Shown here piece by piece: positions 8,381 through 64,000 of a DNA stretch of 64,000 bases. Positions within the stretch are counted from its first letter, which is position 1. The number at the start of each line of letters is the position of its first letter. A program made the position numbers and the translations under genes. Below the pieces are notes generated by a model. It was not told the origin of the DNA and searched no databases. It saw only the letters and a list, made by a program, of their open reading frames with translations. The DNA comes from Vezdaea acicularis (taxonomy: Eukaryota): assembly GCA_026025075.1 (NCBI GenBank), contig JAPEUI010000013.1, forward strand, positions 1-64,000, in the 5' to 3' direction.

Positions 8381-10484
8381 TCATCCTTTCCCCGTGACCT
8401 CCCCATCCTTCGATTTCTTCCAGTCATGCGCCATACTGAGCAACTTGGCCATATTCGCCGCCTGTTGGTCATCCGCAGGGAAGATGTAGTCCACGTACTC
8501 CTCAAAGCTATCATCGTCCAACCTCCTCCGCTTCTTAACGCGCCTCGGCATCTGATCCTCGACTTGCTTGATAGAGTCGGGTGTCCCATGGGTGCGCTCG
8601 AAAGAAAGATGTGCGTTAAGAAGGGCAACCCGTTCCTCTTTCATAGACTTGGCTTGGAAGCGTTTGCTCGCGCGTTCGAAGATGGTGCGAGCACGAGCCT
8701 TGGCCGCATCGCTGATGGGCTTTTCTTCCTCTTCATCCTCTTCTGCATCTTGCTCCTCTTCCTCGGAGTCCGGCACGTTGATCTCGAAGAGGGCGTAGCT
8801 GATCCAGACCTTGACGTGGTCGGTCTTGTCAAGGAGGCGTTCGTACAGGGCGCGAGTGCGCTCGTATTCCCCTTCTTCTTCCTCAAAGTCGATGTAGGCT
8901 TTCCACACCAGTTCGGGCATGTCGAGCATCGGTTGCTCGATCGCAAGCTCGTATATGGCTCGTGCGCGCTCGAAGTCTTCGAGCCCGCGTTCCAGTTCGG
9001 CGAACTCAATCCACGCTCGACTATTGGCTGGGTTCCACTCAATGTGCTTCTCATATAGAGTACGACATCTGACAAATTCATATAGTTTACGCTCCAGCGC
9101 GATGTAGCCTTTGAACAGCTTGTCCTTGGGGCAGAGGCCTATGGCTTGGCCAAGTGTTTTACGAGCGGCCTGGAGTTGCTGCTGCCGAATCTCAAATTCT
9201 GCCTTGAGCAGCCAGATCTTTCCGAAGGTGAACCGTTTATGTGGGATAAGCTTGAGGCATTCTTGATAGATTTGGCGCGAGCGTGAGGCATCCCCAGCAT
9301 CCATCTCTTCCCATAGGGCGTAGAAGACCCAAAGGTAAATGTACCGCCGCCAATGCCGCTTTTCCTGTGTGGGCGGGATCTGGGCAATAGCGCGTTCGTA
9401 GACGTCGCGGACGCGGTCGAAATCACCAGAGCTTTCCTCAAGCCGGGCGTAATCAAACCAGATGTCGTAGTTCTTGGGGTTTTCTTTGAGCTGTTCTTCG
9501 TACTGGACTCGGCGTTTTGAAAGGATGACCTCTTCGACGCCTTCACGATCGCCGAACTGTTTCTCGAAGGTTGTGTAGGCTTTATGTAATATCATCGCCT
9601 TGGAGCGGGGAAGTCTGTCCAGAGCATACTTGTAGATAGAGCGCGCTCGTTCGTATTCCTTGAGCTTAGCTTCGTACCGAGCGTAAGCTATGAAGAGCTT
9701 CTCGTCCATGAAGTCGTCTCCAAGAGTCTCGATTGCTACACCAAAGACTTCTCGCACGAGCTCGCTAGTACCATTCTCTTCTTCGAAACGTGCCCATTTG
9801 ATCCAGTTTCGGGGCTCTGGGTGGACGGCTGTGAATCTCTCGAAGATAGCCCGTGCTCTTGAAAACTCGTTATACCTCTTCTCCATCTTGATGTACGCGC
9901 TCCACGCAGCTTCTTCTGGCTCCCAACTCATCCATCTTTCGTACACTTGGCGTGTCCCTGGTATATTCCCAAGCGTCTCCTCCATGTATACGTATTTATA
10001 CCACAGCTTGTCTATACGGGGAAGGATTGTGACAGCTCTATCAAGCAGATTTCGAGCATGGTTGATATTTCTTGTCTTCATCTCCGCTTCTATGTAACGA
10101 ATCCAAAGTACGACAGAAGTCGAATCAACGTCTAAAGCGCGCTCAAATACGGACCGAGCCCTAATAAAGATCTCAGTAAACCGTGGGAAACGACATGGGG
10201 CATGGCGCAGCATACCTTCTGAATTCTTTCTGTTCCAGCTCCCACTGCGCATAGCGCATCCAGTTGTTCATATTTATCCTGTTTCTCCGCACATAGTCCT
10301 CAAACTCCTTCCTTTTCCTCCCTTGGAATTCATGGAGCTCCTCGAGATCGGCGAAACGCTGAGTCGGGGCCTGGAGACCTGGCTCTTGACGGTCAACTGC
10401 TTCTCTAAGGAGTTGCTCCGCGCTGATCTGAACAGGCGCGGGCGCCTTGTTCTTGACCCTCGGGGGCCCTCTTGTCGCCTCCAT
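8381..10484 (-). CDS. CLF1: Pre-mRNA splicing factor Clf1/crooked neck (HAT-repeat NTC component); exons 10484-10216 and 10160-8381
   Basis: N-terminus [21 protein letters not shown], many HAT repeats ([18 protein letters not shown]) and C-terminal [12 protein letters not shown] 55-nt GTATGC...TAG intron (10215-10161) joins EFRR/ARS in frame. Confidence 0.97.
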
Positions 10485-10735: not shown

Positions 10736-12592
10736 ATGTCCTCTCTCGCAGAGGAACTACTGCAAGATTTCGAAGATTCAGGCTCAGATGATCATGATGA
10801 AGGGCAGAACGGAACTATGGAGATTGATGGTGACGAAGAGGGGTTTGGTGATGAGGATGAGAAGATGGGAAATGGCGATGATGCCAACGGGGCTACAATA
10901 GAAGCCGATGATGAGGAGGAAGCTAAAGCCAAAGTCGAAAAGATGGATCTGGGGCATGTGGATGATGTTCGAAGCGTAGCAGGCTTGATGAAGACACTAG
11001 AGCCGGTCTTGCAGGTTAGTACATCACTCCTAAGGAGCGCATATAAGGCATAGTTTACATCTACTCTGGAAAGTAGCCCTGACTGTTATCGTACCGTGCT
11101 GCAGAAAATCGAACATTACCAATCCCTTCCACCGGAGAAGAAAGCAGCAAACGTCGGATCCATGGAAGACAATCCGGAATACAATCTCCTTACTCAAGCA
11201 AATACACTCTCCACATCTATCGACAACGAGATCATTCTAGTCCACAAGTTCATTCGGGATCACTACTCGATACGATTCCCAGAGCTTGAAACCCTCATCT
11301 CGAATCCACTCGACTATGCCAAGTCTGTCGCGATTATCGGTAATGGGCCCATGGATAACGTGCAAGGTCTCTCCACATCGACTGAAAACCTCGTCGGCAC
11401 GTCACTGAAATCGGTGCTCGACGGTCCTTCCCTGATGGTAGTTACTGTAGAAGCAACTACAACAAGAGGCCGTGACCTCACGCCTGCAGAACTCTCGCGT
11501 ATCCTCCGTGCTTGCGAGATGACACTATCCCTTGATCGAGCCAAGCGCGTTCTGACCAACTATGTTCAGTCACGCATGAATGTTTTTGCTCCCAATCTCA
11601 CGGCTCTGATCGGCTCCTTGACTGCTGCTCAACTTATCAATTTCGCTGGTGGAATCACAGGCCTCTCCAAAACACCCGCTTGCAACCTCGCTCCACTGGG
11701 CTCAAAGAAGCAAGCACAATCCGGCTTTGCTACGAACGTTGGTCTGCGCCATCAAGGGTTCCTATACAATTCCCCTATCATACGGGGCATACCTGCAGAT
11801 CTCAAACGGCAAGCCCTTCGTATTGTGTCTGCAAAAGTAGTGCTTGCAGCTCGTACAGATAGGGTCCACAGCTCTCCTGATGGGTCGGACGGCGAACAAC
11901 TGAAAGCTGCATGTCTGCAAAGGCTAGAGAAGCTTACTGAGCCACCTCCAAATAAGGGTCCTCGTGCTTTGCCTGCACCAGACGACAAGCCAGCAAGAAA
12001 GCGAGGCGGTCGAAGGGCTAGAAAAGCTAAAGAAGCAACGGCTATGACAGATCTTCGAAAAGCACAGAACAGAATGGCGTTCGGTAAGGAAGAGAAGGAA
12101 GTTGGATATGGCACAGGAGAAAGTACCAAAGGAATGGGAATGATTGGCCAGGCAAATGAAGGACGCATACGTGCACTGCAGGTGGACAGTCGAACCAGAG
12201 CCAAGCTTTCGAAGAACAGCAAAGGATGGGGGGGTGCTACAACCACAGGCACTGCCTCATCCTTGCGTGGATTTGGTCAAGGTGGAGCAAGCACGAGTCT
12301 AAGGCCTGGACTGGGCGGTCTTAGGACTACTGGGGTGGGCAGTATCGGTGGAACTTCTGGCATTGCTAGTTCTATCGCTTTCACGCCTGTTCAAGGCTTA
12401 GAGCTGGTTGACCCAAAGATTCAAGCAGAGCTAGGAAGGAAGCGAAAAGCGGAAGAAGATCGGTGGTTCAAAGGAGGGACTTTTACGAATGTTGGAGCCA
12501 AGGAAGGCACAAACGGAGACTTTAAGGTTCCTGCACTTCCTGCAAAGAAACAAAAGACCGAAGTTGGCACGATGGGCCCGCCACCCAGCTAA
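10736..12592 (+). CDS. PRP31: U4/U6 snRNP splicing factor Prp31; exons 10736-11014 and 11105-12592
   Basis: NOSIC/Nop motifs (IHKFIRDHY-like VHKFIRDHYSIRFPELETLI, FAPNLTALIG) and Prp31 C-terminal KRGGRRARKAKE...RKAQNRMAFG, SSIAFTPVQGLEL. Phase-0 GTTAGT...CAG intron at 11015-11104. Confidence 0.96.
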
Positions 12593-12981: not shown

Positions 12982-13605
12982 CTACCTCCTCAAATTTGAG
13001 GCAGCGAAGAGTTCTGCTCTATAGACACGGGAGCAATATCTGCTGTAGGTTGCCTCAGCGTGTGGTTGATACCCATCGCATTGCTGATCGTTACGGCTCG
13101 ATGGCCCATCTCCCTTTACTACTTCCGGTTGATAGGCCTTGATAAGATCGCTTCCATGTTGCCTGCTCTCCCAGGCTCCCCAGTCGCGAAGGCGATCCGC
13201 CTTTCGTGGACGAGCAGGTCCTGGGTCTGATCGGCTTCGGCGCCCATCACAAGAACAAGCATCTTTACAGTATTGGACGAGGTATGTGCTCTCATAGTAA
13301 CCCCAGTTCACCGCCCGGCAAACAAGAACCCCGCCGAAAAGGGTACTTTCGAATGAACCGGCCAAATCACATCGGCAAGAGATATACGGGCCTTGCACTG
13401 CGCCAGCGGCGTCCGTGTATATCGGAGGGACGCCGATACATAGAGCCTCGATGGAATCATACGCTGAGGGCTGACTTTCACGAGGCCAGCCGGCTTCAGG
13501 CAGTTCACCGCTACAGGTTGGTATCCCCCAGACTTCAGCCAAGCCCTCACGGAAGAGGAAAGCCGCGACTAAGAGATATACGTTCTGAAAGGGCACAGAG
13601 ACCAT
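12982..13605 (-). CDS. Secreted cysteine-rich protein, 8-Cys family paralogue A (207 aa)
   Basis: Signal-peptide-like N-terminus (VYLLVAAFLFREGLA). Motif PTC..LP..GWP..Y.SIEALC..CRC..C..W..LVQYCKDACSC is shared with four other ORFs in the window. Confidence 0.75.
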   Translation of the reverse strand: MVSVPFQNVYLLVAAFLFREGLAEVWGIPTCSGELPEAGWPRESQPSAYDSIEALCIGVPPIYTDAAGAVQGPYISCRCDLAGSFESTLFGGVLVCRAVNWGYYESTYLVQYCKDACSCDGRRSRSDPGPARPRKADRLRDWGAWESRQHGSDLIKAYQPEVVKGDGPSSRNDQQCDGYQPHAEATYSRYCSRVYRAELFAASNLRR

Positions 13606-13963
13606 TTGACTGCGACAACCACGGTAAAAACTTGGTCCAAATCATTAAATCATGGAGACGCCCACATGCCTGTATTAAGCCCTAGTGACAATGTTTCGGT
13701 AATCAGTTACGCTCATGCTGGGAAGGTTAAGGATTTAAAACAAAGTTGCCACCGCGGATGCGCAATATCGCGCACCCGGGCCTTCTGGCTGTCTTATCAC
13801 TTAGCGTTATCACTTCGGGGAGCGTTTAAATCTTTTAGATATCTTAGCCTCCTAAACTCTCCAAAAACTACAGCAATTACCCTGATTAAGACGCCCCGGA
13901 TTGAGGAGGGAAAAGCGCCATGACAATTAGAACTGATAAATCCTGTACTCTTACATCTCGCCA

Positions 13964-14617
13964 TTATCCAAATGCAGAACCAGCTGATATGAGTGATAGG
14001 CACGAGCCTGGCCGCCTTGCAACTCCCAATTTAGGGCCTATGCTACCGTTGCGGCTCCATCTTCTACTTTTTCGCACGCATCCGACTAAGTTGCTACATG
14101 TGTCCATGCTACAGCGGTCGCCCTCTCCTATCTCACCAATGTTCCCGAACGTTGATTTACGTCGGTTCGTTCTCTCCGGCGAAGTACCTTTGATTCCAAA
14201 GCCTTGACTAGTACCCTCAATTCTACCTTGTGTACTTGCCGATCTTAGCATTGCACCAAAGTTCCTACTCTCGTCGTTGAACTCGGTTGGACATCGGCAT
14301 TTTTCTTTGCAATAGGCTTCCAGCTGCCCATGATCGCCCCCCCAGATATGTTCGTCGGGAAAACAATTTACCTCTCCATCAGAGAAGCAGAAACAACGTA
14401 GCGAGGGAAGGCGTGCTTGTCGAGCAACGCCGTGGCAGAGGTGATCGAGGTCTTCATAGCTGAGCCGAGGGTTGTTTGATCCTAATCGGCCTTGCACAAT
14501 CTCTGGCCAATATTTATTTTCTGGTAGTTCAGCGTCGCAAATTGGTTGCCATGCAACTATCGGGGCAGTCAACAAAAACTCAAGGAGAACAATATGTGCG
14601 AATAGGTGGCTTATCAT
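13964..14617 (-). CDS. Secreted cysteine-rich protein, 8-Cys family paralogue B (217 aa)
   Basis: Signal peptide (MISHLFAHIVLLEFLLTAPIVA) followed by PIC..LP..YWP..YEDLDHLC..CFC..C..W..LEAYCKEKCRC. Confidence 0.75.
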   Translation of the reverse strand: MISHLFAHIVLLEFLLTAPIVAWQPICDAELPENKYWPEIVQGRLGSNNPRLSYEDLDHLCHGVARQARLPSLRCFCFSDGEVNCFPDEHIWGGDHGQLEAYCKEKCRCPTEFNDESRNFGAMLRSASTQGRIEGTSQGFGIKGTSPERTNRRKSTFGNIGEIGEGDRCSMDTCSNLVGCVRKSRRWSRNGSIGPKLGVARRPGSCLSLISAGSAFG

Positions 14618-15138
14618 CGCGACGCATCGGAAGAGTTACAGCTTCGCGTACATCAGCAGCTCTTCTGTACAAATCTGAGTTCATAGAGCTCTATGTTTGA
14701 AGACGTGTCATATGGATTTTGTATATGTCAACTGACTGGTTTGAGGGTCTAGAGATGTAGATACATCTTACGCCATTCGAGATTTGCGGCACATACATAC
14801 AAGATACACGTCATATTTGCCAAATTGTAGGAGTCTCCACTTGTACTATACAATCCTTCATTAATTCAGGGGTCATACATTGCGCACGGATAGTGTTGAG
14901 ATTATATCGCGCAAAGCAAGTGAAATTGAGGATACGGGTTTCAGTACTCCAGTATCATCTACGACCCATTGTCTCGGACCTCTGCATATCAGCATAAGCT
15001 ATTATGCAAATAAAGACCTCTAGTTCCTAGTAATATCGAGTCGATCATGCTCCGGAATCCTGGCTCTATTGTCATTACCCAGAAATCGGACGGAAAACAT
15101 CAAAGTTCAAAGCGCGCCAAGATCCTCGGAATGGGGCT

Positions 15139-16011
15139 TCAGCGGATATAAATTCCTCCGACTTTTAAAGCAGGGTCCTCCCAAACAATTCCGTTAGGCG
15201 AACCACAACAGCTCTGGGAGATCCACGATGAGTTGCAAGCACACAAAGGCGCATCCGCGCTCCTCTTCCGCATTCCGAAAAAAGAGGAGCTAGTTCTCGA
15301 TCTTCCCATTGTGCTTTCAACAATGCCGCAGCCGCCGAGCCTCAAGAAGTGCCCACTCTGCTCCCGTAATAAGCACACAGCTCTTTCGCAGCCCTCAATC
15401 TCTCGTATACCATTGCAGTCGGCTGAACTTGAACAGGTCGAAGTAGCCAAACATGTGGGGTCAGAATTGGCAGGCGTCTTCTCAGACATAAAGAATCCAG
15501 ACTCTTGGAGTATGTCAAACTCTGTTGACAGCCTATTCCGCACCCGAGGCGTGAGATGAAAGGCATATCCATTGTGAAGTCTGTGACGAGAGGGTTGTGA
15601 ATCTTCATTTTCCGAATGCTCCTCTTCGTCTGAGCTTGAATCCGAGTCATAGCACTCGCAAGCCTCTTCACAGAACCTCTGCAGCCTATTGGTACCTTCA
15701 TGGGAGGTGTCTAGCCATCGTAAAGGCGGGCGGCAGGTCAGTCTCGTTGGCGCGTTTGTTGAGGCGCAGAGGCAATGCATTGAGGGCCCTGGAAACTCGT
15801 GGATGTAAGTGCAAAGACTTTGGATGTCGGGATAAGTATCCCAGGGTTGTTCCCCAGCTTCAGGAGGCCAGCCATCTGTCGGCAATGGACCATCATAACA
15901 GTAAGGCGTTATCAAGGCGTCGATTCCTTTTGGGGATGTAAATGTTGGCCACATGGTTGCTAGTAGCCATAACCTAAATATTCTTAAGAATTTTTCAGGG
16001 GCTTTAGACAT
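15139..16011 (-). CDS. Secreted cysteine-rich protein, 8-Cys family paralogue C (290 aa from ATG 16011), full three-module form
   Basis: PYC..LP..GWP..YPDIQSLC..CLC..C..W..LQRFCEEACEC, then an acidic linker, a second Cys module, and RKR followed by CACNSSWISQSCC..GIVWEDPALKVG. The start was chosen at MSKAPEKFLRIFRLWLLATMW; the signal peptide is less clear than in the paralogues. Confidence 0.75.
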   Translation of the reverse strand: MSKAPEKFLRIFRLWLLATMWPTFTSPKGIDALITPYCYDGPLPTDGWPPEAGEQPWDTYPDIQSLCTYIHEFPGPSMHCLCASTNAPTRLTCRPPLRWLDTSHEGTNRLQRFCEEACECYDSDSSSDEEEHSENEDSQPSRHRLHNGYAFHLTPRVRNRLSTEFDILQESGFFMSEKTPANSDPTCLATSTCSSSADCNGIREIEGCERAVCLLREQSGHFLRLGGCGIVESTMGRSRTSSSFFGMRKRSADAPLCACNSSWISQSCCGSPNGIVWEDPALKVGGIYIR

Positions 16012-16402
16012 GGCTCTAATATGGTCGATCCGTGGGCCAGCTTGCCAAAGAATGTCATTTACTGGTTTGAAATAGCACGCTTGCTTTCCATGGTTCTTCT
16101 GGTTGCTCAGTGTAGGATTTATGGCGGGACGTCCAAGCGGTGGATGCTCCATGAATGCGGGATTAATATTGGCAGCGGCATCCTCCCGTCCTAAACCCAC
16201 GGCCTCAAGTTTCAGCCCTTACCATCCCATAGCCCTTTGTTCCAAATCCATTTTAAGGTTACGCCTAGGTCTGTACTTCATATGACATTCATCGTTTGGT
16301 ACTCTGGTACGACCACTACTCCCGCGCGAAGGGCTTCGACACTGCTGGGTCTCTCTTCATCAAGAGCATCAACTCAGCGTGTCAGGTCCGTAGGCACTGT
16401 CT

Positions 16403-17161
16403 ATGGCCTTCCCATTGTTCTTTCTATTGTTTGCTTGCATTTGCAATCTGGTTGCTTGCGTCTCTGATCTCGATAATCTTCCAAACCCGCTTCGACCCGT
16501 ATGTGCTCCAATCGGCCCCCCATATCACGGTTGGGATCCCAGTGGTACCATACACCCTGAGCGGTCTAGCTATCAGAATCTTGAGCAGCTCTGTGTAGGA
16601 AAATATGCTAGTCCTGGCTCCCCTCCTCCACCTCCAAATTTCAACTGCCGTTGTGTTGGGGGACCTCAACGATGGGTACTTGCCTGTGAAAAGCCCGCGA
16701 TCTGGGCCCATAGAACTACCGACAGACTCATAAGCTACTGCAACATCTTCTGCAAGTGTCCTTACGGGCTAGACTTTCAGAGGAGACGTTATATGTTTTA
16801 CGAAGGACGAGGTTGGGTCCTCGAAGTGGATCATAGCGAGATGGAAGAGCCATACGAGTTACCACCAAGCGACAACGAAGATTATGTCATGGATATACTC
16901 AGGGACTACGGATATCACTTCGACCCACTGATCCAAGATATGCCAGAGCCGAGAAACAGTGATCTAGGTCGGAATCCTCGAAGTGCTGGGAAAGATGAGG
17001 CTAAGGCGTATAGGAAAACCCGTGAGGTTGCAGAGTGCAAGCCCCTTTCTAGAAGGAGGAAGAGGAAGGATGATGACAAAGGGAAGACATGTGAATCCTG
17101 GGAGAGGCTAAATAAGTTAGGGTCGATTGGCGGGACTCTACTTGCATCAAACGTTAGATAG
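16403..17161 (+). CDS. Secreted cysteine-rich protein, 8-Cys family paralogue D (252 aa)
   Basis: Signal peptide (MAFPLFFLLFACICNLVAC) followed by PVC..PP..GW..YQNLEQLC..CRC..C..W..LISYCNIFCKC. Divergent from paralogue C. Confidence 0.75.
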   Translation: MAFPLFFLLFACICNLVACVSDLDNLPNPLRPVCAPIGPPYHGWDPSGTIHPERSSYQNLEQLCVGKYASPGSPPPPPNFNCRCVGGPQRWVLACEKPAIWAHRTTDRLISYCNIFCKCPYGLDFQRRRYMFYEGRGWVLEVDHSEMEEPYELPPSDNEDYVMDILRDYGYHFDPLIQDMPEPRNSDLGRNPRSAGKDEAKAYRKTREVAECKPLSRRRKRKDDDKGKTCESWERLNKLGSIGGTLLASNVR

Positions 17162-18277: not shown

Positions 18278-18517
18278 CTAGGCGCCACCCTCTCTCTTGG
18301 CATATTCCTCCTCGATAGCCTCCTCATAAGCTTTATCCGCGGCATCTTGAGTGTCTGCTTCGCTCCGCTTCTCGCGCGCCTCCGTAATTCTCGTCTCTTC
18401 ATCTCTCTTTTCAGGCTCATTCCCAATTTTTGCTTTAGCCTCCTCTAAGCTAGCCGAATCTAATGCAGCTGTTGCCTCTTGTCGGGCGTCTGCTTTCGTA
18501 AAAGTTGGAGGGCCCAT
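18278..18517 (-). CDS. Small acidic helical hypothetical protein (79 aa) ending YEEAIEEEYAKREGGA
   Basis: ATG at 18517 and a coding-like E/A/K composition. The C-terminal EEEYAKREGGA motif is one I recognise from conserved Pezizomycotina hypothetical proteins. A probable upstream intron (CTAAT...CAG) leaves the start uncertain. Confidence 0.7.
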   Translation of the reverse strand: MGPPTFTKADARQEATAALDSASLEEAKAKIGNEPEKRDEETRITEAREKRSEADTQDAADKAYEEAIEEEYAKREGGA

Positions 18518-18915: not shown

Positions 18916-19500
18916 TCATTTCGCCAACGCTTGCTCAACCAGACCTTTGGCTTTACCACTAAGATCAATCTTCAAAGCTTCTTCATGACCCTTCTCGCTC
19001 ATCTTAGCCCATGTCTTCCTTATGATTGAAATTATCTTCTCCTCGTCATGCTCCTTCTCAAAATCCTCAAATTGATCGTCAAGAAATACCAAGCAAGCTG
19101 TATCCTCTAAGGTTTGCGTTTCTTCATCTTTCTTTAAATCTTCCTTTCTTATGAGTGATGCTACTCTGCCAGCATCTTCGTCCGAGTAGCCGCACTGGAT
19201 GCATATCTCCTCTGCTTGGGTAGCTTGTCGCTTTTTGAGAAACGTCCGCCACGCGAAATAGCCGGCCCTAGTCATCGGATATGAGGAGCGCGGGACCTCC
19301 CATCGTCGGAAATGCTGAGCGCGAATGGCAATCTGCAACATCTCCGACGCGTTTGGATCCAGTCTCTGAAGATAGCTGGACATCTTGCGCGCGTAATGTA
19401 ATTCGTATGGGACGTCCGTACCATCATTGATAATGTTTTTGGGGTCTTCGGCATGTCCTGCGTCAATTATGGACAAAGCTTTCTCTAGCTTGGTGGCCAT
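18916..19500 (-). CDS. DUF4202 family protein
   Basis: Motifs IDAGHAEDP, PYELHYARKM, AIRAQHFRRWEVPRSSYP..RAGY..WR, QTLEDTACLVFL and KTWAKMS. ATG at 19500, intronless. Confidence 0.88.
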   Translation of the reverse strand: MATKLEKALSIIDAGHAEDPKNIINDGTDVPYELHYARKMSSYLQRLDPNASEMLQIAIRAQHFRRWEVPRSSYPMTRAGYFAWRTFLKKRQATQAEEICIQCGYSDEDAGRVASLIRKEDLKKDEETQTLEDTACLVFLDDQFEDFEKEHDEEKIISIIRKTWAKMSEKGHEEALKIDLSGKAKGLVEQALAK

Positions 19501-21393: not shown

Positions 21394-23514
21394 ATGGCTT
21401 CACGAGGCCGTGGTCGCAACAGAATGCCTCCTCCAGCTCCGCCCAGCTTTGACGATGATGCTGGACCTGGCCCGGCAACAGAAGAGATCGAACAAGTTCA
21501 GGCGACATCGACTAGAGGCACCAAAGCCGAGCTGAAGCAGCTCGATGGCCGATACGACCACTTGGGGAATTACAATGTGACTGACAGCAGTGTCTCCATT
21601 TTGGATAATGCCGATGGTGAATCTGAGCCACATGCAGACTTCGCTCTCGTAAGCACAAGAGTGTACGGCGTTGATGGAGTTTATCAATCCACCAACCTCG
21701 AGATCAAATCGAGACTCATCAAGAAGGTCCTCCGAAAGGTTATCAAATATTACCCTGGACAGCCGGTAGATACTGCACAACTCACTCTCAGCGATCCTCC
21801 GAAGCCTTTATTCCACTACAGACAGGAGTTAGAGGATTATCGCCACCAGAAAGCTGATGAGGAGACAAAAAAGCATCTTGACCTCCTCTTCAAGTTCGTT
21901 GACAGCCTGCTTAAAACCCAGGTTGAGCGCTTCAAGGATCTTGCGAAGCGTGGCCTTACTTCTTTCGGTGTCGTATGGATGTTGTTCAAGCCGGGCGACC
22001 TCGTCTTCACGGAAAAGGATGGACAGCCTTGTGCTTACATGATCCAAAAGTGCGAGTCTGTCAGTACCTTCTTCGGAAAATATTGGCAATTGACTTGTGC
22101 TGCCACCAATTATAACGGAACTCGCATTGGCCGTGCCACTGAGACATTGACGGTCCGCAGTTTCGAAGGAACTCGCGATATCACATCTTTAAACGTCTTT
22201 CCTCTCAAATATCATCCAAAAGAAGCACAAATCAAGCATCAACTTCTTGAACGGGGAAAGCGGTTCGTTGCTATGCAAGGAACTCATTATATGTCATACA
22301 AAGGCTTAGCTCAAGAGTTAACCGAGGGAAGCCGTATTGACTACGACGATGAGATGTCCATGGACGGAGAGCGACTTTACAAAACGATCCTCGTCAACGG
22401 AAGAATTATGGTGGATGCTGCAACCTTTTCACGCATTAATCCCTCGAACCGGATCCGGTTTGAGGGAGATTCAACCGTGAAGTGTGACTGCAGTAGCTGT
22501 CGAGCACGAGCGTCACCTTCCTCATCTCTACCTGATCCGGAGTCAAATCTGCCTCCTGGGGGCATCACGAAAGCAGAACAAGAAGGAGACCATGCCATAA
22601 CCGCCCTGAGCGAGAGAGACACCATGCTGTGTTCTCCGTTTGTTCTAGGCTTCTCGCTGCAAAATAAGAAATGGTGTCGCTTCTTTATTGATATGGTAAA
22701 ACCAGTCGAGCTGAACACCCAGGCGTTCTCTCAACTCGTGATGGACCAGGAAAAGAAAGAGCTAGTCCTCGCTATGGTGGAAGCTCACGTTGATGAGGAT
22801 AATGAATTCGACGACATCATTCAAGGAAAAGGCAAGAGCTTAATCATGCTACTTCATGGCGCCCCCGGTGTTGGGAAAACGCTCACCGCAGAGTCTATCG
22901 CCGACTACACTAAACGGCCTCTCTACATGGTTAGTAGCGGCGAGTTAGGCACCCACGCCACTGAGGTCGAAAGTACCCTGCAAGGCATACTTGACATTGC
23001 TACTACATGGAAAGCAGTGGTTCTCCTCGACGAAGCAGATGTATTCCTATCTCAGCGATCAGGCACCGACGTTGAGCGAAACGCTCTCGTGTCGATCTTT
23101 CTGCGTCTCCTCGAGTATTATGAGGGCATTCTCTTCTTGACCTCAAACCGTGTTGAGTCATTTGACTTGGCCTTCAAGTCCCGAATTCACATCGCCCTGA
23201 ACTATCCCACCCTCACTCGTCCTATCAGACGCCAGATCTGGAGCGACTTTATCAATCGCCTGCCTAAAAATACCTGGGACCTTGACCTTGAGAAGGATCT
23301 TAGCGTGCTCGACCTGGAAGATATCAATGGCCGACAGATCAAGAACTGCACGAAGACTTCTGCCGCACTTGCACGCAAGAAGGGCGAGAAAATGCAGCTC
23401 AAGCACCTCGAGACCACGCTTGCTACTATCCGTGAGTTCGAAAGAGACTTTGCAAAGGATCGCCAGAACGGAGATGTACGGACAGTACTGATTGCTAACG
23501 AGAACGGCGTCTGA
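21394..23514 (+). CDS. Fungal AAA+ ATPase with long N-terminal domain (706 aa)
   Basis: Walker A HGAPGVGKTLTAE, Walker B LLDEADVFL, FLRLLEYYEGILFLTSNR, AFKSRIH and NGRQIKN. A probable 5' intron GTAAGT...CTGAC...TAG lies at ~21273-21390. Confidence 0.93.
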   Translation: MASRGRGRNRMPPPAPPSFDDDAGPGPATEEIEQVQATSTRGTKAELKQLDGRYDHLGNYNVTDSSVSILDNADGESEPHADFALVSTRVYGVDGVYQSTNLEIKSRLIKKVLRKVIKYYPGQPVDTAQLTLSDPPKPLFHYRQELEDYRHQKADEETKKHLDLLFKFVDSLLKTQVERFKDLAKRGLTSFGVVWMLFKPGDLVFTEKDGQPCAYMIQKCESVSTFFGKYWQLTCAATNYNGTRIGRATETLTVRSFEGTRDITSLNVFPLKYHPKEAQIKHQLLERGKRFVAMQGTHYMSYKGLAQELTEGSRIDYDDEMSMDGERLYKTILVNGRIMVDAATFSRINPSNRIRFEGDSTVKCDCSSCRARASPSSSLPDPESNLPPGGITKAEQEGDHAITALSERDTMLCSPFVLGFSLQNKKWCRFFIDMVKPVELNTQAFSQLVMDQEKKELVLAMVEAHVDEDNEFDDIIQGKGKSLIMLLHGAPGVGKTLTAESIADYTKRPLYMVSSGELGTHATEVESTLQGILDIATTWKAVVLLDEADVFLSQRSGTDVERNALVSIFLRLLEYYEGILFLTSNRVESFDLAFKSRIHIALNYPTLTRPIRRQIWSDFINRLPKNTWDLDLEKDLSVLDLEDINGRQIKNCTKTSAALARKKGEKMQLKHLETTLATIREFERDFAKDRQNGDVRTVLIANENGV

Positions 23515-59435: not shown

Positions 59436-60302
59436 CTAATCCATGCTCCCTACCTTCAGCTCTGGATCTTCCCAAAGCATGCCTGGCGTCTCAGTTGAAC
59501 AACATCCTTGGGAGACATACGTCGAGTTGCAGGCACAAGCCAGACCAAGAGAATCTCGCTTTCCTCCCCACCAATTGGCAGATTCTGCCATGATCGAGGC
59601 AGATATCCGTGGAAGATCGTTTTCCGCGCGACACCTTCCATTCTTACAGTGCCCTCGGCGACAATAATTTGGTACACAAATGGCCGCATCGCAGCCCGGC
59701 AGTACCTTCGAGTCTTCGCAGTCAGCATGCCCGCGACAACCTCTTTGCAAACAGAGGCTCTCATACGCGAAGAGGTCCCCCTCATGGAATTCCTCCTCTT
59801 CCGAGTTCTTAACATCTTTCGTCGTTATATCATCCGTCAAGCTCCAACTGCCGTAGTTCTTTTTCCTTCCCCAATCCTCCTCATATATACTCTCATCGAC
59901 CTCCGGCTTAGGCTGAGTCTCATCTTCTCCGTCCTTCGCACAGCTGCAGTGTGTTTCGCAGAAGTCAACGAGCCTTTGACTCTGACCCGGACCCCAAGCG
60001 AGCGGCTCCTTACAGAAGACCTCGTCGATGAAGGGAACGAAGCTACACTTGCAATCCATATCCCACGGCATGACATGCCTCAGTAGGGGCGACTTCTCAA
60101 GGATACCGACGCAAAGCGAATCGACGCTGTGATAGCGCAGCCACGGAAAGTCCCCTCGCCTCAGAAACGACGCTGCAGGCCAGGCTGAAGGATCCGTTGG
60201 TATCTTCCCTCGGCATTTCGGTTCTCTCCCAGCGTCTACTACGTTCAGAAGGAGGCCAAAAGGTGCCGCGGCCGTCCAAAGAAGCGTTCTGGTGATGAGC
60301 AT
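59436..60302 (-). CDS. Secreted cysteine-rich protein, 8-Cys family paralogue E (288 aa), full three-module form
   Basis: Signal peptide (MLITRTLLWTAAAPFGLLLNVVDA), PKC..IP..AWP..YHSVDSLC..CKC..C..W..LVDFCETHCSC, a second Cys module, and KR followed by CACNSTYVSQGCC..GMLWEDPELKVG. Confidence 0.8.
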   Translation of the reverse strand: MLITRTLLWTAAAPFGLLLNVVDAGREPKCRGKIPTDPSAWPAASFLRRGDFPWLRYHSVDSLCVGILEKSPLLRHVMPWDMDCKCSFVPFIDEVFCKEPLAWGPGQSQRLVDFCETHCSCAKDGEDETQPKPEVDESIYEEDWGRKKNYGSWSLTDDITTKDVKNSEEEEFHEGDLFAYESLCLQRGCRGHADCEDSKVLPGCDAAICVPNYCRRGHCKNGRCRAENDLPRISASIMAESANWWGGKRDSLGLACACNSTYVSQGCCSTETPGMLWEDPELKVGSMD

Positions 60303-63248: not shown

Positions 63249-64000
63249 ATGGCAGGAAATGCTAGATTTAACAGAGGAATGGCGGAGATCCGAGATACCG
63301 TGCTCGCTACCCAGCATCGCGCTAATCGTCTTGCTACTCGAGATTATGTTGAAGAGTTCAAAGAGGAGACTAAACGATTGTTCAGTAGTGTTCAAGATAG
63401 TATTGAACTTTCCGCCGAGGGATTCGAAGAGCTCACTCAAGCTTGTACTGCCGTCGGAGGCCGTTTAAATACGCTTGAAGAACGCTTAGGCCCTCAAGGT
63501 CAGCTTCTCAGAGCCATCGATGAGAAGTTTGACAGGTTCAGACAGAGTCTGAACACCGCAACTGATGGATTTGGTGCCCTCAACAGACATGTCGGCACCA
63601 CTATGCAGGAGTTCCAAGGGCGCCTTGTAGAGCATTCACGTACCGTCGAACGGCAATTGAACTCGCTGGGAGGGCGGTTCACTGTCATTGAAAATCGTCT
63701 AGATGAAATTGGCGTAGAGCAAACCAGGCTAGGCAATCACTTAAGAGCTATTGAAGGAAGCCTAGATGAGCGCCTAGATAGGCGCCTAGATGAACGCCTA
63801 GAAGTCTTATACCAAAGGCTTGACGGACGTCTGAACGTTTTGGAGCTTCGCTTTGATCAACGTTTTGACGGCTTTGATCAACGTTTTAACGGCTTTAATC
63901 AACGTCTTGTCGGCCTTGATGAACGTTTTAACGGCCTTGATCAACTTTTGAACAATTTTGAACAGCATCTTGGCGAACAACACCGCCAAGTATTTGCAGA
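63249..64000 (+). CDS. Coiled-coil/heptad-repeat hypothetical protein, truncated by the window end (start may lie upstream)
   Basis: The frame is open from ~62922 to the window end and is absent from the ORF track because it has no stop. ATG 63249 gives MAGNARFNRGMAEIRD...LDERLDRRLDERL...FDQRFDGFDQRFNGFNQRLVGLDERFNGLDQ. Confidence 0.7.
   Translation, partial: MAGNARFNRGMAEIRDTVLATQHRANRLATRDYVEEFKEETKRLFSSVQDSIELSAEGFEELTQACTAVGGRLNTLEERLGPQGQLLRAIDEKFDRFRQSLNTATDGFGALNRHVGTTMQEFQGRLVEHSRTVERQLNSLGGRFTVIENRLDEIGVEQTRLGNHLRAIEGSLDERLDRRLDERLEVLYQRLDGRLNVLELRFDQRFDGFDQRFNGFNQRLVGLDERFNGLDQLLNNFEQHLGEQHRQVFA
63762..63945 (+). repeat. 12-bp (GCCTAGAT-N4) and 21-bp (CTTTGATCAACGTTTTRACGG) coding tandem repeats
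   Basis: Directly visible. They encode LDxR and F/L-D-Q-R-F-N/D-G heptads. Confidence 0.85.

Follow-up and report, generated by a model that had tools for sequence, protein, structure and literature searches.

A candidate effector-like protein family of lichen fungi: one full-length and three truncated genes clustered in Vezdaea acicularis

Hydrophobins, CFEM, LysM, and cerato-platanin proteins are small secreted proteins of fungi; hydrophobins have eight cysteines including two CC doublets, and CFEM proteins also have eight. Knottins are commonly cut from precursors, and the products of the plant albumin-1 and cyclotide precursors, as well as fungal Avr9, are knot peptides. Here, we describe four adjacent genes (positions 12,982-17,161) in a 64,000-nucleotide stretch of Vezdaea acicularis contig JAPEUI010000013.1 (assembly GCA_026025075.1; the whole stretch is referred to as the window) whose products, like the fungal proteins named above, are small and appear to be secreted. 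On the basis of sequence and structural models, we favor, with modest confidence, the reading that these genes, one full-length and three truncated, belong to an undescribed secreted, disulfide-rich, effector-like family of lichen fungi that would act on external targets. Full-length members are ordered as a predicted signal peptide, one or two copies of a domain designated A, a variable linker, a six-cysteine module designated B, a Kex2-type site, and a conserved C-terminal module designated C.

Several described systems resemble this family in part. As set out in the available portion of PMC8528282, K2PP effectors are likewise secreted and cysteine-rich with a conserved KR, RR, or LxxR site, but they lose a disordered N-terminal pro-domain, whereas the site in this family lies toward the C-terminal end, with a knottin-like module before it and a conserved tail after it; no relation in sequence or fold was found between the two. 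KEPs share with the family a signal peptide and a Kex2 site that releases a peptide, but the definition in the accessible part of PMC6339444 demands at least three repeats between Kex2 sites, whereas members of this family have one conserved site between unlike modules and no more than two or three A domains at a locus. Finally, cl04 of Xanthoria parietina, as described in the available text of bioRxiv 10.1101/2024.08.16.608140, is also secreted, unannotated, lichen-enriched, and multi-member, but has relatives in Alternaria and Mollisia, neither of which was seen among the relatives of the present family; that text describes no motif or architecture for cl04. The best reading of the sequences and models is that the family is of the secreted, cysteine-rich effector kind, probably combining a domain whose fold found no match with a module resembling knottins and a cleavable conserved tail.

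An earlier note on this DNA had reported four adjacent open reading frames, three on the minus strand and one divergent on the plus strand, and all are present as described. Each also fits, residue for residue and including all eight cysteines, the scaffold given there, P-x-C-x(3-4)-[LP]-P-x(3-4)-W...Y-x(5)-L-C...C-x-C...C-x(4-6)-W...L-x-x-[YF]-C-x(3)-C-x-C. P0001 (12,982-13,605, minus strand, 207 aa) and P0002 (13,964-14,617, minus strand, 217 aa) are A-only genes with hydrophobic N-termini, eight-cysteine A domains at approximately 13,243-13,530 and 14,285-14,554, and tails containing two cysteines, in a stretch unrelated to the other modules, and four cysteines, respectively. P0003 (16,403-17,161, plus strand, 252 aa), which is divergent from P0004, is similarly A-only, with a hydrophobic N-terminus, an eight-cysteine A domain at approximately 16,487-16,765, and a charged two-cysteine tail. 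P0004 (15,139-16,011, minus strand, 290 aa) appears to encode the full-length precursor, consisting of a weak signal peptide, an eight-cysteine A domain (15,646-15,915), a linker, a six-cysteine, knottin (cystine-knot)-like B module (15,328-15,453), a Lys-Arg pair predicted to be a Kex2 site (15,262-15,267), and a C module (15,142-15,261) with the pattern CxC-N-x-S/T...CC...G-x-V-W-E, four cysteines, and an N-glycosylation sequon. The P0004 frame is open to 16,152 (15,139-16,152), and its probable start was placed at the second Met, at 16,011, because the 47 residues upstream are hydrophilic. A fifth member, P0005 (59,436-60,302, minus strand, 288 aa), lies outside the cluster, supplies the fifth N-terminal domain counted in the earlier note, and is full-length, with a KR pair (59,556-59,561) between B and C.

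Hidden Markov models (HMMs) were built independently from 174 A domains, or from the 63 with eight cysteines, of proteins from other genomes, each seed protein being less than 80% identical to any fetched frame of the V. acicularis genome. These models ranked P0001-P0005 at the top of the 858 frames in the window, with E-values of 1.5e-10 to 1.1e-8 (1.5e-9 for P0001, 2.7e-10 for P0002, 3.5e-9 for P0003, 1.5e-10 for P0004, and 7.2e-10 for P0005), and the frame ranked sixth reached only 0.06-0.26. A family profile, a check proposed in the earlier note, therefore singles out these five genes, and the resemblance among the four clustered genes is not due to chance. Within the cluster, B and C modules are present in P0004 only. 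Scanning all six frames near P0001-P0003 revealed no concealed exon for C, and their tails fail the B profile, with 100-200 of 200 shuffles scoring equally high, compared to 0 of 200 for the B module of P0004. The four-cysteine tail of P0002 was considered as a leftover B domain and rejected (141 of 200 shuffles reached its score). Close copies were found for P0001, P0002, and P0004, with two residue changes each.

The V. acicularis genome (18.9 Mb, 315 contigs) was searched for further members. P0005 as the query yielded 42 matches and a C-terminal piece 51; further single-protein searches raised the family to at least 88 loci, which are spread over 56 contigs and contain 96 A domains and 52 C modules. 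This count is a lower bound, and in the rough automatic grouping of these loci (38 AC, 8 AAC, 31 A, 4 AA, 1 AAA, and 6 C) short flanks may have clipped some of the A-only or C-only calls. A family neighbor within 3 kb was found for 24 of the 88 loci, the four-gene block being the biggest group seen. The contig of the cluster carries another one of the same make-up at 178.7-183.2 kb (L075:2743-7239), with a full-length member between two A-only genes. Members at L003, L006, L048, L053, and L068 contain a stop or frame change between modules; a near-identical whole counterpart of the L053 gene, P0051, exists elsewhere, so some of these interruptions may reflect polymorphism or faulty assembly. 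Four long apparent fusions (P0096, P0029, P0233, and P0104) each carry a different partner domain and were taken to be merged gene calls.

As for the origin of the cluster, the A domains of P0001-P0004 are 27-33% identical to one another, and their mean identity was equaled or exceeded by 1013 of 20,000 random quartets drawn from 38 eight-cysteine domains of the same genome. A Trp shortly after the fifth cysteine (C5), a feature noticed before it was counted, occurs in 13 of these 38 domains, including all 7 scored from the cluster's contig. A-domain trees gave little resolution; P0001-P0004 do not form a single clade in the free tree, and constraining them to do so did not reach rejection (approximately unbiased test, p=0.183). 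An old local duplication is the likely origin of the four genes. The neighborhood of PRP31 and the DUF4202 gene that surrounds the cluster was found in 0 of 11 metagenome loci, all of which carry other paralogues.

The A domain spans approximately 90 residues, with two CxC motifs and without CC. Scoring 221 of 224 A domains for the third and fifth cysteines revealed both in 97, neither in 119, C5 only in 5, and C3 only in 0. The two are therefore retained or lost together, which points to a C3-C5 disulfide, and the domain thus exists in an eight-cysteine form, as in the cluster, and an equally common six-cysteine form. The description of an eight-cysteine family in the earlier note accordingly holds for the A domains of the cluster but is too narrow for the family, which in addition has the knottin-like B module and the Kex2-separated tail. 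In the two-A, six-cysteine subfamily, which is the form of most named Lecanoromycetes matches, an extra two-cysteine motif precedes B, and the B hairpin carries a D-P-V-F-P motif. An AlphaFold2 model of the P0004 A domain, made with 51 domains from the same genome, was confident (predicted local distance difference test, pLDDT, 90; predicted template modeling score, pTM, 0.81) and predicts short strands and a C-terminal helix. Foldseek found no match to this model in the PDB at E<=0.001, the best Z among 48,161 chains was only 2.3, and there was no match among the BFVD viral folds. The structural check suggested in the earlier note thus yielded a confident model without a match in the PDB or BFVD, although these absent matches establish the predicted A fold neither as new nor as distinct from known folds. 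Outside the cysteines, same-genome paralogues are 15% identical in A, compared to 47% in C (666 pairs).

The six cysteine columns of B are at least 90% conserved across 47 rows, and the spacing C-x3-C-x5/6-C...C-x-C...C is found in 43 of 63 relatives (3,5,1 in 33 and 3,6,1 in 10). In a model of B and C together, only residues 2-51 align to anything, and all four matches are small cystine-dense peptides: 6atl (Z 3.2, root-mean-square deviation [rmsd] 2.3, 36 residues aligned), the tomato peptide 2hlg (Z 2.4, rmsd 2.9, 39 aligned), 6ay7 (Z 2.4, rmsd 3.6, 37 aligned), and EETI-II, 1w7z (Z 2.1, rmsd 1.9, 30 of 31 aligned). The top row from Foldseek was 6xyh (Ms11a-2), a weak match at E 6.5 to what the title of PMC9866706, the part of that source relied on here, calls an inhibitor cystine knot peptide. 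Comparison of 47 B+C regions with Pfam gave nothing above threshold, knottin families included, and PDB sequence searches with the A profile, the B+C profile, and one typical B+C sequence returned 0 matches. Like inhibitor cystine knot peptides, B has six cysteines with knottin-type spacing including CxC; unlike them, it has a long variable hairpin, follows a larger unrelated domain, and is missing from three of the four cluster genes. Based on these models, B may be termed knottin-like, short of a proven knottin.

Between B and C, a KR pair is present in 32 of 50 same-genome members (6.7 expected from loop shuffles) and in 63 of 119 other members (14 expected). Because both sets had been picked with a C profile that contains the site, the count was repeated without this bias on 120 relatives found via A alone, 63 of which have C; 34 of these 63 carry KR (9.3 expected). 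Any site of the KR, RR, or LxxR type, a definition taken from the available part of PMC8528282, occurs in 47 of 50 same-genome members (21.5 expected) and 58 of the 63 A-found relatives (26.8 expected). No dibasic excess was found in the A-B linker (11 of 28, compared to 8.7 expected; the count covers this linker but not the residues from the signal peptide to A). Of all the modules, C is the best conserved across the family, and its N-glycosylation sequon is present in 61 of the 63 A-found relatives. The sole PDB match to the C profile, TGF-alpha (E 0.03-0.04 over 16 positions), was taken as chance.

Signal peptides were judged by hydropathy alone, as the best mean over 10 residues. The hydrophobic N-termini reported in the earlier note are evident in P0001-P0003 (2.4-3.1) and weak in P0004 (1.63), with P0005 at 1.89. 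No internal membrane segment was found by hydropathy in P0001-P0005, and 113 of the 150 family matches listed have a mean of at least 2.0, supporting the prediction that family members are built for secretion.

Sequence comparison assigned these proteins to no known family. At E<=1, P0001, P0003, P0004, and P0005 match 0 Pfam families, and P0002 has a single unrelated sub-threshold match. When 51 A domains were compared with Pfam (E<=0.1), no hydrophobin, CFEM, LysM, or cerato-platanin match was found, in agreement with the earlier note, which had left the family unassigned and could not match its spacing to any of the four. Hydrophobins are further set apart by the two CxC and absent CC of the A domain, and CFEM, LysM, and cerato-platanin by a different cysteine spacing; solved folds of these four families are unlisted among the matches to the A model, an absence that by itself excludes none of them. 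MGF110/v110 (PF01639) emerged as a weak lead from ESM Atlas features only (0.76 and 0.82; 113-117 of 256 features), backed neither by a v110 Pfam match nor, for the A model, by a viral fold match. Lacking a counterpart in Pfam, among PDB sequences, or in the fold searches, the family is supported as unassigned.

A word-based search with P0005 alone returned 0 of 256 candidates, and profiles were therefore needed to find relatives. Among 1.84 billion representatives, an A profile seeded from the V. acicularis genome itself detected 254 proteins at E<=0.001, the best 150 of which were examined (27 are at least 95% identical to same-genome frames), and a C profile and a two-A subfamily profile, with 8000 candidates scored each, detected 84 and 23. 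After 30 further matches were looked up by name and five proteins identical to own-genome loci were left out, 35 organism-named relatives from 13 taxa remained, every one annotated 'hypothetical protein'. Those from Lecanoromycetes, a placement that we assume for six of the eight taxa, come from Lecanora helva, Flavoplaca navasiana (2), Physcia stellaris, Villophora microphyllina, Loekoesia sp., Xylographa soralifera, Acarospora aff. strigata, and Trapelia coarctata; Flavoplaca and Villophora presumably belong to the same taxonomic family as Xanthoria. Arthoniomycetes are represented by Chrysothrix sp. (2). We take all 13 taxa to be lichen-formers, so that the source is lichen-forming for 35 of 35 named relatives, with no non-lichen organism among them; V. 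acicularis itself is presumably a lichen-forming ascomycete as well. This distribution fits the role in symbiosis or antagonism suggested in the earlier note. Its proposal of a lineage-expanded family is borne out by the number of loci in this genome, but not in the sense of narrow lineage specificity, since relatives occur in three fungal classes. The third, Lichinomycetes as circumscribed in the available part of PMC12238968, is represented by Caeruleum heppii (16), Vezdaea aestivalis (6), Chaenotheca gracillima, and Thelocarpon superellum, and Caeruleum is described as lichen-forming in the accessible text of bioRxiv 10.64898/2026.07.28.741190. As far as the literature searched goes, the family is undescribed: no description was found in the available portions of bioRxiv 10.1101/2024.08.16.608140, 10.64898/2026.09.03.749242, and 10.64898/2026.06.16.732702, or of PMC9232553 and PMC13525654, and preprint supplements may list members as unnamed clusters, such as Xanthoria cl04.

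Selection was assessed by the Nei-Gojobori ratio of nonsynonymous to synonymous substitution (dN/dS) in orthologue pairs from the 11 metagenome loci, all of which are true members. By part, the two-A orthologues at L082 and L084 have a dN/dS of 0.02 in A1, 0.11 in A2, 0.06 in B, 0.04 in C, and 0.40 in the B-C loop, and neighboring genes compared in the same frame have values of 0.09-0.28. The eight-cysteine pair L077/L079 has a dN/dS of 0.37-0.40, compared to 0.02-0.29 for its neighbors. With dN/dS well under 1 in all modules, the data show that the family is coding and constrained, and the eight-cysteine form, which is the cluster's own, evolves faster than the two-A form; these values cover two orthologue pairs, the sole close copies found of cluster genes differing by two residues each. 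At L077:9192-10111, an eight-cysteine member is split across two frames but whole in L079, which could reflect loss of an intact gene, the presence of an intron, or a mistake in assembly. Divergent from the two-A orthologue, in two related genomes, is a gene for a cysteine-free, secreted-looking 220-aa protein with a KR site (L082:6465-7124 and L084:6468-7130, minus strand; dN/dS 0.23), which was not seen beside V. acicularis members.

If the effector-like reading is correct, the precursor would enter the secretory pathway, where it would be oxidized and glycosylated, and Kex2 would then cut between B and C. Once freed, the conserved C tail might assist folding or trafficking as a propeptide, or it might be a constant peptide in its own right. 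The hypervariable surfaces of A and B would leave the hypha and engage targets outside it, putatively the surface or enzymes of the photobiont or competing microbes. The A-only genes, three of the four in the cluster, would deliver the A domain alone. Several observations weigh against this reading. The B+C model is middling (pLDDT 69.6, pTM 0.41) and its structural matches are low (Z 2.1-3.2), B is near neutral and C acidic, unlike cationic antimicrobial peptides, and the signal peptide of P0004 is weak, with a best 10-residue mean of 1.63. A Kex2-type site is missing in 5 of 63 relatives and 3 of 50 same-genome members, and the restriction to lichens rests on 35 named proteins, a minority of the matches. 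Moreover, the two-A orthologue is under constraint (dN/dS 0.12 over 581 codons, dS 0.73) and positive selection was not found in either of the two testable orthologue pairs, so that the word 'diversifying' in the earlier note, if taken to mean positive selection, finds no support in values of 0.12 and approximately 0.4.

Purifying selection on orthologues, together with the nearly invariant sequon and strongly conserved C module, would also be expected of secreted proteins that build or protect the hyphal wall or the thallus matrix, acting in coating, adhesion, gel formation, or protection from metals or desiccation, with glycosylated C anchoring or polymerizing and the variation largely neutral; lichen fungi, moreover, have a special extracellular matrix in common. 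We consider this explanation unlikely, given that a conserved Kex2-type site parts C from the rest, that C was not seen in at least 36 of the 88 loci in the DNA fetched, that there is no Pfam match to hydrophobins or other wall proteins, and that a knottin-like module and 15% non-cysteine identity among paralogues suit target binding better. Another explanation accepts that the family is functional but holds that the three A-only genes of the cluster are decaying duplicates with drifting tails. Their tails do match neither the B profile nor the tails of other members, and stops or frameshifts split several members in the same genome. However, P0001-P0003 are unlikely to be long dead because they keep open frames of 207-252 aa and all eight cysteines at approximately 30% mutual identity, along with hydrophobic N-termini; intact near-identical copies of P0001 and P0002 with two changes each exist in another record, and A-only forms are common in this and other genomes, so we regard decay as very unlikely. 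The least probable alternative, in our judgment, is that the precursors release peptides serving as signals between fungi or as self/non-self ligands, to be read by receptors of the fungus itself during the development of the thallus or fruit body. Fungal signaling peptides are made by Kex2 processing, according to the available part of PMC6339444, and the C peptide is constant, which would suit a ligand, but the internal repeats that KEPs have between Kex2 sites are absent, and no recurring partner, receptor, or tailoring gene was seen beside members in the fetched loci, whose flanks are short.

The genes flanking the cluster do not belong to the family. The main exon of PRP31 (11,162-12,592, plus strand; Pfam Nop, E 5.7e-73, and Prp31_C, E 3.6e-45) is to the left and a DUF4202 gene (18,916-19,500, minus strand; PF13875, E 2.5e-85) to the right. 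Pfam thus bears out both flanks named in the earlier note, but not the third gene that it placed there, a small acidic 79-aa frame ending in EEEYAKREGGA (18,278-18,517, minus strand), which has no Pfam match. A HAT-repeat gene of the Syf1/CRNKL1 type (8,381-10,484, minus strand) is arranged head to head with PRP31 (10,736-12,592, plus strand), both encoding splicing factors. A gene with DUF7025 and an AAA ATPase domain (21,394-23,514, plus strand) lies 4 kb past the cluster, and a frame of at least 250 aa that runs beyond the window edge (63,249-64,000, plus strand) has heptad-like repeats at its end, probably forming a coiled coil.

By what means lichen fungi recognize their algae and microbiota and keep them in check is still an open question. 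A comparative study, as far as its available text goes (PMC9232553), reported hardly any lichen-specific genes held in common, most of the small secreted proteins being confined to one genus or species. A secreted family that spans three classes of lichen fungi would be a candidate for a shared toolkit, one whose members, at 15-30% identity, ordinary orthologue clustering would split. A broader version of this idea, which we put forward tentatively and regard as rather doubtful, is a symbiosis effector superfamily of new fold, common to Lichinomycetes, Lecanoromycetes, and Arthoniomycetes and absent from non-lichen fungi, in which a two-A core orthologue would be held under purifying selection while lineage-specific bursts reach up to approximately 90 copies in a streamlined genome, and Kex2 cleavage would yield a variable A-knottin part together with a constant glycopeptide, to act on the photobiont. 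The family also offers a confidently modeled small domain without a fold match and what may be a large source of fungal knottin-like peptides, both of expressible sizes. At 18.9 Mb, the V. acicularis genome is within the size range typical of gene-poor Lichinomycetes, according to the accessible part of bioRxiv 10.64898/2026.07.28.741190, and the retention of at least 88 copies in a genome of this size suggests that the family matters to the organism.

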